A stretch of 29,044 bases of DNA from Seison nebaliae (GCA_023231475.1 JALJEE010001690.1:124001-153044), one strand, 5' to 3'. Counted from the stretch's first letter, positions 4,858 through 28,945 are shown. The notes: generated by a model not told the origin, from the sequence alone. Made by a program: numbers and translations.

Positions 4858-7605
4858 ATGATGAATAACAATATGACGTCAGCGCAAACTTCCACCGACA
4901 ACAACATTTCCGGTGATGGTGGTTCAACACGTAGAAGAGATGATAACACCAATAGTCATGGTAACAGTTCATCATCACCAACAACAACCACATCAGCCTC
5001 CTCTCCTCATTCAGGGCGATTCACGAATGTTCACGGTGATGCACCAAATCAACAACCATCAGATCTGGAGAATAATAGACAAATAATTAACGAGACAAAT
5101 GAATATGATGCGAATTGTAATCAAAGTAATTCGAAAAGGAAGGACGATATCATACAACCATTGCCAACGAAAGATCGTATGTTAAAAGGTTTCTCTTCTT
5201 TCATTCTCCAAATGAAAATATGGAAATTTATCATCATCATTTTCAGCTGTACCCTTTCCGCCCACACATCGTCTAACCGATAAAGAAGTATTCGACGCAC
5301 AAGGAAAACCACGTGTCGAAGTATTAAAACAACATTTTATTTTGGAGGGTCGACTCACTGAAGCTGTTGCCAATCGGATAGTTCAAGAAGGTGCCCAACT
5401 CCTCAAGAATGAGAAGACAATGATAGAAGTTGAAGCACCAATTACTGGTTATTTCACAATTATTTCCTTACAATTTATTCAATTTCTAATTCAAATTAGT
5501 TTGTGGTGATATTCATGGACAATTTTATGATTTGATGAAACTGTTTGAAGTTGGTGGACCACCTTCACAGACACGATATCTATTTCTCGGTGACTATGTT
5601 GATCGTGGATATTTCAGTATTGAAGTTATTAATATTCTTCACCATATCCTTTTATTCTTTTTATTCAAATTTCAGTGTGTAATATATTTGTGGTCAATGA
5701 AAATACTTTATCCATCAACATTCTTTCTTTTACGCGGCAATCACGAATGTCGTCATTTGACGGAATATTTCACATTTAAACAAGAGTGTTTATTTTCTAA
5801 TTCTTCTTCTTCTTTTTATTCAAATTCATGATATATATCAACAGGTCTCATAAAATATTCTCAACAACTCTATGATACTTGTATGAACGCATTTGACTGT
5901 CTTCCGTTAGCTGCTTTAATGAACGGACAGTTTCTTTGTGTTCACGGTGGAATATCACCCGAAATCAATTCACTCGAAGATATCAGAAGAGTTCTTCCAT
6001 TCTATCATTCAGTTATTTTATCTCAATTCTCTAGTTGGACAGGTTCAAAGAGCCTCCGCCAATGGGTCCCATGTGTGACTTGTTATGGTCAGATCCGTTG
6101 GAGGAATATGGTAATGAGAAGAATCATGAATTCTTTTCACAAAATTCTGTTCGCGGATGTTCATACTTCTACAGGTTTATATATATATATACATCTCTCC
6201 TCCTTCATTCTAACTCTAATTCTAACTATTTCAATTTGACAGTTATCAGGCTTGTTGTGACTTCCTCGCTAGGAACGGTCTCTTATCGATTATTCGTGCA
6301 CATGAAGCACAGGATGCTGGGTTCATTTGAAAATTCATCATTCATTTTTCATTCTCTTCTCCAAATCATTCATTGTATATTAGTTATCGAATGTATCGGA
6401 AAAGTCAAGCAACAGGATTTCCTTCTTTGATAACTATCTTCTCAGCACCAAATTATTTAGATGTCTACAATAACAAAGGTTCTTAATTATTCTCTATTCA
6501 ATTCAAATTTGTTTTAGCGGCTATTTTGAAATATGAAAATAATGTGATGAATATTCGTCAATTCAATTGTTCACCTCATCCATATTGGCTACCGAATTTC
6601 ATGGACGTTTTCACTTGGTCACTGCCATTCGTAGGTGAAAAAGGTTTGAATTCTTATTAGAATTATATTTTTTTCATATTTGTTTAAATAATAATAATCT
6701 GATAATATTTTGAAATAGTTACGGAGATTTTGGTGAAGATTTTGAGTATTTGTTCGGATGAAACGATTGAAGAGACGTCTGAAGAACGTTAGTCGATTTC
6801 TTCTTATTATTAATGACAGAGAATTTGATCAATCGAAAGTTGATTTTGATGAGAACTTAATAACATTTTTCATTTTCTTTTCTATCCATTAAAAATGAAA
6901 GAAGCACCTCAAATAAGTAAATGTTCTATTCGTTTATTTTCATTTCGCACTTGATTGGGAAGGAAATTTTTATCAATTTATTAAATGATTTTAATGAAAT
7001 GAAATCAATATTTTTCTAATGTCCACTTCAGCTGATTCTTCTTTATCCATCAACTGCTTCCCAACACAAACAGTCGAATAATAACGAAAGTTGATTTTAC
7101 TAAAACTGAATTAATCGAAATTCAATCGCTCCTCATTTTGCACATTTATAACAACAAAATAACATCATCAAAGATAATTGCTTATCTCACTACAATTTTT
7201 GATATGTTTTCAAATATTAACCTTTTTTCTCCTTTTCAGCCGGATTGGGTGCACGTCGTGATGTTATCAAAAATAAAATTCGAGCAGTCGGTAAAATGGC
7301 TCATGTATTCAAAGTATTACGGTTAGTTTCCATCATATTCATAAATTATTTTAAAAAATTTGAATTTTAGTGAGGAAAGTGAAAGTGTACTCCAATTGAA
7401 AGGACTCACTCCAACAGGAAATTTACCAATCGGTACACTTTCCGGTGGACGATCATCAATCAATCAAGGTTCCTTTATTCAAATCATTCTTTAGATTTAT
7501 TTATGTTCCATTCCAATAGCATTGAGTGGAATAGGTTCCTTTGAGGAGGCGAGAAAGTTGGATAAGGCCAACGAAAAAATGCCTCCAAGGAAAGATGCAA
7601 AATGA
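4858..7605 (+). CDS. PPP3C: Calcineurin A (serine/threonine phosphatase 2B catalytic subunit), about 562 aa, 13 exons: 4858-5188, 5247-5447, 5500-5624, 5676-5787, 5845-5990, 6035-6174, 6243-6320, 6384-6478, 6518-6643, 6719-6787, 7240-7321, 7371-7468, 7520-7605
   Basis: Spliced translation has the PPP motifs GDIHGQ, GDYVDRG, RGNHE and SAPNYL, the CnB-binding region [24 protein letters not shown], the CaM-binding helix [23 protein letters not shown] and the autoinhibitory [17 protein letters not shown]. All 12 introns are GT-AG and preserve frame. Confidence 0.98.
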
Positions 7606-8747
7606 TAAAATTTCTTTTGATTTTTTTTTTTCGAGTTTCATTTGTATCAATTCAATCGATTCCAATCCCCTTAATCGACAACATTTACTCAAAAGAAAAC
7701 CAACAAATTTATTTAATAATTATCATTTTCATCTATAAGAAAATTTTCCCAATATCATTGTCGTCATTATCATCTATCAATTCGTAAAAATAAATTCAAA
7801 TTTATTTCCTTTCTTTTCAATAATTATATCATACCAATCACAACAACAACAACAACAAGAATTATTTGTTTATACAAATTTATCAAGATATTTTCATTTT
7901 TCTTATTCTAATTATTGACATGGAAACCAACTAAAATCTGAGAGTTATCGATTCCAAACTGTCCAAATATTTTCAAATATAATCTGTGACGACTAATGAT
8001 ATTTTTCGAAGTTTTCTATTCTCCACATTCATTATTTATCAATTCATTCTTTCCTTTTCTCATTTTGTTAATCATCAATTGCTATTATCCGATAATTCAG
8101 TACAAACCTTGAAAAAAAAACAAAAGAAATAGAAATAAAACTTCTTTTTATCATATTTTTTCTTTCCTCATTAATCAAATAGGTGTGTGTAATACAATAC
8201 TTTTATCTTTCCTACAATTTTTATCAAATTTAGTTTGTTAAATTTTAACTGTTAAACCTTCTGTATAAGTGTCTTTCGATAAAACTAAGAAAAGATTATT
8301 TTAGTACACAATCAGATTTTATGATTACATGACCATAAGCCATTGTTTAGGTAAATATTATAGTATATGCATTGTTTATGATATAGATTATTTATAGATA
8401 TAATATCTATAAATTACACATAATCAGTTTCCTATTACTGTGCCATTCCATACATTCATGAACCTAGTAAAGTGTAAAGCTACAACCGAAATAATTGATG
8501 AATAATCGTCAAATTTGAACGTTAGACGTTCTTTTTGTAAGAATAAAATATAATTTTTGTTCTTACAATATCCTGCTTTCTCAATTTGAATATAGGAAAT
8601 ATAGTGGAAAAAAGTTTATTGTGAAAAATATTGTTTAAGATTGTATTATTTGGGAGATTGTGATGACGAGGTTATCTTCTTTGCAGCTTGTCTAATTTTA
8701 AATAAAACTTAAAAAATTCAACATATCGGTTGTTTTTTACAATATAA

Positions 8748-28921: not shown

Positions 28922-28945
28922 GTTAGTTTTGTTATCATAAATATT

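Follow-up and report, generated by a model that had tools for sequence, protein, structure and literature searches.

Introns beginning with GTT in three genes of the rotifer Seison nebaliae point to a likely change in how 5' splice sites are read

Animal introns usually begin with GTA or GTG, and few features of animal splicing are as conserved as the purine at the third intron position (+3) and the U1 sequence that pairs with the donor. In a 29,044-nucleotide stretch of DNA from the marine rotifer Seison nebaliae (GCA_023231475.1 JALJEE010001690.1:124001-153044; hereafter the window, meaning the whole stretch that was analyzed), we found that 25 of 28 annotated introns start with GTT (Wilson interval 73-96%) when public protein models of three genes were mapped exactly onto it. 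The bias toward T at +3 is real in these three genes and far above chance, and it likely extends genome-wide. Inside the window, the strong preference for +3 U and the change of donor recognition proposed in a preliminary description of this DNA are supported by the counts, by the junctions fixed with homologs, by the contrast with decoy sites, and by an orthologous intron. Overall, we conclude that in S. nebaliae, described as a rotifer whose host is the crustacean Nebalia (PMC8351084), a changed rule likely governs how the splicing machinery recognizes the start of an intron.

The counted genes encode calcineurin A, WDR19, and an esterase (Table 1), with junctions taken from the public gene models P0001, P0273, P0121, and P0272. 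The exceptions among the annotated donors are the GTA sites at 27538 and 27883 in WDR19 and a GTGAGT at 18561 in the esterase; adding the donor of a cassette exon in calcineurin brings the count to 26 of 29 donors. Within this exon, an in-frame GTAAAT lies 6 nt upstream of donor 6923, for which the annotated sequence is GTTCTA. All 28 introns run GT..AG (the mapping permitted GT/GC..AG only), 26 of 28 have YAG acceptors, and the U12-type motif GTATCC is absent among the annotated donors listed, which by their ends places the introns in the major U2-type class. Their median length is 51 nt, and they are dense, with 13 in the 545-codon calcineurin gene and 11 in 583 codons of WDR19. The preliminary description had assigned calcineurin 12 GTT donors out of 12, and all 12 coordinates read GTT and coincide with junctions of P0001, which adds a GTT intron at 4967; its figure of three out of four for the esterase agrees with P0272 (three GTT and one GTGAGT). 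For WDR19, 11 of 13 had been claimed, and P0121 gives 9 of 11, the two GTA donors falling in a stretch with rival exon paths. Similarly, the description of the GTT bias as window-wide, in five genes, holds for three of them; the other two, probably those it had called "Tau-like" (minus strand) and "membrane protein" (plus strand), are unannotated, offer 2-9 possible donors per intron, and have no Pfam match, and the 4/5 and 3/4 claimed for them were left out of the count.

To place the junctions, profiles were built from 81 calcineurin and 42 WDR19 homologs, Seison excluded, and, at each of the 24 junctions in the two genes, all frame-keeping GT/GC..AG pairs up to 36 nt away were scored. The annotated pair had the top score at 23 of 24 junctions, the junction at 4967 being ambiguous; for the intron at 26244, the lead over the next pair in the WDR19 profile was only 1 bit. 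After these two junctions and the two GTA donors (27538 and 27883) were dropped, all 20 profile-pinned junctions were GTT, and the count became 23 of 24 with the four esterase introns, which are placed by the public model only. As the four rows dropped include two that are not GTT, the more cautious figure is 25 of 28. Across the stretch of WDR19 from 27450 to 28085, profile scoring put the seven best exon paths within 9 bits of each other, and the annotated path is ~10 residues longer than the homologs; the public WDR19 model may be wrong here. The same stretch holds two pairs of similar small exons (27496-27537 with 27617-27651 and 27653-27696 with 27809-27882), which are perhaps a duplication serving as alternative exons. 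DNA contigs over the calcineurin and esterase regions displayed scattered differences only, none of those listed being at a donor.

Table 1. Genes, donors, and uncounted candidates in the window
Feature	Position	Strand	Remarks
Calcineurin A gene SNEBB_006872	4861..7605	+	13 introns, all GTT; an exon 100% identical to SNEBB_006872
Calcineurin donors	4967, 5189, 5448, 5625, 5788, 5991, 6175, 6321, 6479, 6644, 6788, 7322, 7469	+	12 of 13 profile-pinned
21-nt cassette exon, calcineurin isoform P0273	6902..6922	+	Donor 6923 GTTCTA; public annotation
Unannotated gene, at least 5 introns	8748..10027	-	No Pfam match in three exon pieces; uncounted
Unannotated gene, at least 4 introns, hydrophobic segment	10393..11415	+	No Pfam match; uncounted
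Carboxylesterase gene SNEBB_006878	17414..19201	-	Public model P0272 only
Esterase donors	19046 GTTTCA, 18561 GTGAGT, 18345 GTTAAT, 17775 GTTAGT	-	Public model P0272
WDR19/IFT144 gene, 5' part, SNEBB_006880	26229..28921	+	Public model P0121, profile
WDR19 GTT donors	26244, 26395, 26512, 26681, 27037, 27281, 27450, 28356, 28645	+	
WDR19 annotated GTA donors	27538, 27883	+	Stretch with rival exon paths; poor +4 to +6
WDR19 stretch with apparently duplicated small exons	27450..28085	+	Rival paths: GTTTGT donor 27697, or GTA/GTG donors
Last donor GTTAGT, probable	28922..28927	+	Without acceptor in the window; rival GT 2 nt upstream; uncounted

One account of these counts would be that +3 is under no selection and that T-rich introns, GTT-rich DNA, or biased hand placement produced them. 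The background is already 42-49% GTT: on both strands of the window, GTT makes up 42.1% and GTA 22.5% of 2,509 GT sites, and, inside introns, 24 of 49 GT sites (0.49) are GTT and 11 of 49 GTA. The two are therefore unequal, and the preliminary statement that AT richness favors GTA as much as GTT has to be given up. Further, a predictor that had learned a bias of its own may underlie the public models. However, 25 of 28 is rejected by binomial tests against the window frequency (p=3e-7 vs 0.42), the intron frequency (p=9e-6 vs 0.49), and even 0.6 (p=7e-4), T occupies +4 in just 9 of 28 of the same introns, and each of the 20 junctions pinned with outside homologs is GTT. The GTT-rich background does not account for ~90% GTT donors; composition alone was rejected, and the absence of selection at +3 is very improbable.

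When the 29 donors were set against 326 decoy GT sites from these genes, T at +3 was found in 26 of 29 donors and 123 of 326 decoys (38%; p=4e-8), whereas C at +3 was found in none of the 29 donors and in 68 of 326 decoys (21%; p=0.002). This indicates that the site wants U and not any pyrimidine. Enrichment was also seen for G at -1 (17 of 29 vs 23% of decoys, p=1e-4), A at -2 (15 of 29 vs 32%, p=0.04), G at +5 (10 of 29 vs 14%, p=0.014), and T at +6 (20 of 29 vs 31%, p=6e-5). At +4, A is not significantly enriched (11 of 29 vs 34%), and the composition (A 11, T 9, C 7, and G 2) reveals no preference for U. The preliminary description noted that many donors lack +4A and +5G; of these, +5G is weak yet enriched over decoys. 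With a weak +5G and a strong +6T, the motif is GTTNNT-like and not just GTT. The one well-placed non-GTT donor, in the esterase at 18561, is a perfect GTGAGT, as if a mismatch at +3 needed full pairing elsewhere (n=1). A trade-off between -1G and +5G was not visible in this small sample (Fisher p=1.0, n=28).

The introns themselves appear to be old. Where homolog open frames run on from exon into intron, their resemblance ends at the counterparts of junctions 5189, 5448, and 5625; at the 5448 junction, the next codon in such read-through homologs reveals the +3 base. Here, 31 of 119 homologs leave the normal spliced sequence, and 29 of these 31 read G next; two of the 29 (P0068 and P0084) were dropped because they continue into a later exon. 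In the 27 kept, all from other organisms, +3 is A in 17, G in 4, C in 4, T in 1, and C or T in 1, so that at most 2 of 27 have T at the orthologous intron. By these homologous proteins, the intron position at 5448 is judged to be old, with a mostly purine +3 outside Seison. The remaining calcineurin introns, we presume, are also at vertebrate positions. Age demonstrated for one intron and presumed for the rest implies that the donors changed in place. In nematodes and bdelloid rotifers, GTT makes up a sizeable minority of donors, and Seison could be the extreme of a wider trend. One homolog, P0002, has A at +3 of the 5448 junction; in a quick tree that misplaces the long Seison branch, it groups close to a Brachionus protein, which weakly hints, from a single case, that GTT may not be used at this intron in all rotifers.

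An alternative origin is that the introns are recent Introner-like insertions that carried GTT ends with them. The neighboring calcineurin introns 5625-5675 and 5788-5844 have a nearly identical run of ~21 bases in common close to their 3' ends, above all 20 shuffles. Set against this, the mean pairwise similarity of 25 introns is 14.47 compared with 14.46 after shuffling, and the junctions at 5189, 5448, and 5625 are also where homologs from other organisms break off. An Introner origin was thus rejected on shuffle similarity and shared junctions, and we give it almost no credence.

Nucleotide 6 of U1 faces donor +3. The strict requirement for U and the absence of C point to an A partner, and the signals kept at -2, -1, +5, and +6 point to the normal pairing register; both the missing +3C and the unshifted register agree with a predicted U1 that has ACUAAC in place of ACUUAC. 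The +3 U would then be read by Watson-Crick pairing with A6, the pair gained at +3 would offset the lost +4A and the weak +5G, and the remaining specificity could come from short-intron definition. Replacing canonical U1 with the A6 form raises the separation of real from decoy sites from an AUC of 0.74 to 0.84, a gain that repeats the +3 bias in another form and carries no independent weight. We tentatively favor the predicted ACUAAC change as the best explanation of the GTT donors, though at somewhat less than even confidence. The two annotated GTA donors of WDR19, with their poor +4 to +6, speak against it, as does the small base of three counted genes. The fuller reading, that the ancient introns switched in place from GTR to GTT throughout the genome and that the major U1 changed to ACUAAC, is possible and is put forward with more reserve.

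A canonical U1 could read a +3 U without any snRNA change by pairing one base shifted or bulged, with +3U opposite U1 A7, which would explain the strictness of the signal. Such a register predicts +6G and +7T; +6G occurs in 1 of 29 donors (below decoys) and +7T in 8 of 29, and the real-vs-decoy AUC is 0.54. These values rule out the shifted register for most donors here, and as a general explanation it is very improbable.

A more serious competitor is that U1 and U6 are canonical and that +3 U is chosen by proteins (a diverged U1C, LUC7, or a U-binding helper such as TIA-1) or by U6, through a G-U wobble with the ACAGA box and pairing of +6U to U6. The strong +6T enrichment is in keeping with this, U1 has stayed canonical in most lineages whose donors changed (those cases being at +4, not +3), and, in the portion of Roy and Bowser (bioRxiv 10.1101/2022.06.08.495308) covered here, GUUUGU is a donor that could pair more fully with U6 ACAGA. 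Against it, a G partner should take C at least as readily as U, and +3C is absent; the U6 register also gives an AUC of 0.73, no better than the 0.74 of canonical U1. We consider selection of +3 U by proteins or U6 with canonical snRNAs rather unlikely, and the compensated U1, ranked above it, the most likely reading.

Less probable again, and in our view quite unlikely, is a change in U6 at the base facing +3 or the loss of its m6A through loss of METTL16, shifting the donor consensus. Of 25 rotifer and acanthocephalan genomes, only that of Seison has METTL16 scored as Missing (PMC12256650 supplement), and +4A is not enriched. However, 356 BUSCO genes are absent for Seison in the same table, which makes one Missing call weak; SNRNP27 is scored Complete in Seison there (PMC12256650 supplement). 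Further, in the covered part of PMC10581693, METTL16 loss is tied to +4U and not to +3U, T being present at +4 in 9 of 29 donors here, and ACAGA is invariant in 240 fungal genomes; it is also kept in Entamoeba in the covered part of the preprint (bioRxiv 10.1101/2022.06.08.495308). For the free +4, the Missing call offers a weak lead: a METTL16 loss, if it occurred, would explain that position and not +3.

Using a U1 bait at 80% likeness, we recovered one U1-like contig in each of four Seison-holding runs. Its alignment covers U1 nucleotides 1-58 and 9 flanking letters with 55 of 67 identical, a tally without the letter at nucleotide 6; the 12 differences include no gaps across the 5' end, a gap-free alignment in keeping with canonical U1, and the contig continues into the U1 loop II motif. 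Its depth, ~0.4-0.6 of that of the window's contigs, fits one haplotype or a multicopy gene from another organism in the sample. No Rfam match, and thus no snRNA, was found within the window, and a U1 pattern search in viral contigs gave no match; the calcineurin locus was likewise not found there. A scan of other genomes aimed at a non-U at nucleotide 6 returned 18 U1 loci, five of which have ACUAAC (Rfam 85-141 bits), one sitting 470 nt from a canonical copy. These loci show that such genes arise, and that one copy of this kind would not prove the case.

Four of these loci (L009:1080-1240, L010:2888-3048, L024:343-503, and L026:347-507) are near-identical U1 genes with ACUAAC (Rfam 138-141 bits), and in L016:1155-2553 a canonical U1 (121 bits) is clustered with U2 and with an ACUAAC variant of U1 that scores 85 bits, both ends of the contig carrying further U1-like pieces. 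In L013:1104-1432, L014:1-2675, and L015:287-665, U1 has ACACAC, which would pair with GUGUGU, and its neighbors are canonical U6 and many tRNAs (L013 and L014), 18S rRNA (L014), and U4 (L015); these loci are possibly another case of donor/U1 coevolution in a eukaryote. L020, L022, and L023 carry the variants ACGCAC or ACUCAC, with a canonical-ended U1 and U4 on the same contig in L020 and L022, and the bacterial MAG records L002, L003, L004, L007, and L008 contain eukaryotic U1, U2, or 5S as host contamination.

The rest of the window includes long intronless open frames at 11620-13458 and 13635-14072 on the minus strand, 15607-16461 and 22003-24765 on the plus strand, and 24740-25270 on the minus strand. 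Among them are a TFIIA gamma-like protein (weak Pfam), a LicD family member, and a GCV_H-like small protein, which we take to be Abitram-like; two frames, of 612 and 920 codons, have no Pfam match. A short local repeat at 16990-17045, seen in many contigs at several times the window depth, is probably a dispersed repeat. Run X3 has low-depth contigs of ~90% likeness at 10065-10219 and 7983-8124, which may come from a second, rarer lineage or from a paralogous copy.

In the literature covered, subscription papers being mostly outside it, we came across no description of GTT donors for Seison, for rotifers, or for another animal. The main text of PMC12256650 does not mention splicing, and no +3 figures were found in the covered parts of PMC10599564. 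The transcript-to-genome table of PMC8351084 (supplement 2) has many gaps of ~40-80 nt among the rows listed; 12 exon/intron length patterns of the genes studied here had no matching row among them. The known cases of rewired donors with a matching U1 are from amoebae, and Roy and Bowser associate such change mainly with lineages in which most introns had been lost beforehand. If the genome-wide switch and the predicted U1 change are both true of Seison, they would amount to the first animal case of such snRNA-donor coevolution, and one without intron loss or a strict consensus. An intron-rich animal in which many old donors switched would be a test of how one snRNA can shift jointly with thousands of sites. 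A canonical U1 would be equally puzzling, since another component must then select +3 U. The bias is also relevant to gene prediction in rotifers by splice models trained on other animals.

Among systems with altered donors, the covered portions of the preprint (bioRxiv 10.1101/2022.06.08.495308) describe a canonical U1 in Thecamonas, Mamiellales, and yeasts despite their changed donors, and in Saccharomycotina the U1s of 227 yeasts and 9 outgroups are invariant in the covered part of PMC10581693, which links +4U donors to loss of METTL16 and SNRNP27K with U1 and U6 unchanged. Seison shares with Saccharomycotina the lost preference for +4A and, possibly, the absence of METTL16, but the yeasts prefer +4U and are unaffected at +3, whereas Seison has no +4 preference and its SNRNP27 is scored Complete. 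The AG//GUNNN donors of animals and plants, as set out in the covered parts of PMC11732430 and PMC11347140, resemble those of Seison in their weak +4/+5 and enriched -2A/-1G; unlike in Seison, +3U is not required in that class. Mastigamoeba balamuthi, with U1 ACGUAC in the same portions of the preprint, is, like Seison, an intron-rich species whose donor consensus has changed, and its U1 differs from the canonical form by one base, but its donor change is at +4 (C) and not +3. Closest is Entamoeba, the only +3U lineage in those portions (bioRxiv 10.1101/2022.06.08.495308), with 88-90% GUUUGU donors and a compensating U1 ACAAAC, which makes it a precedent for the mechanism proposed here. Both have +3 U in nearly all introns, short AT-rich introns, and a favored +6U; Entamoeba differs in its strict GUUUGU, its intron-poor genome, and a U1 change that was found, whereas Seison is an intron-rich animal with a free +4 (+4T in 9 of 28), +5G in 10 of 28, and a U1 change that is predicted only. 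Thus, the window displays the near-universal +3 U of the Entamoeba type without its strict GUUUGU and intron-poor genes, and Seison is like Entamoeba at +3 and is not filed as a member of that type, from which its relaxed consensus and many introns set it apart.
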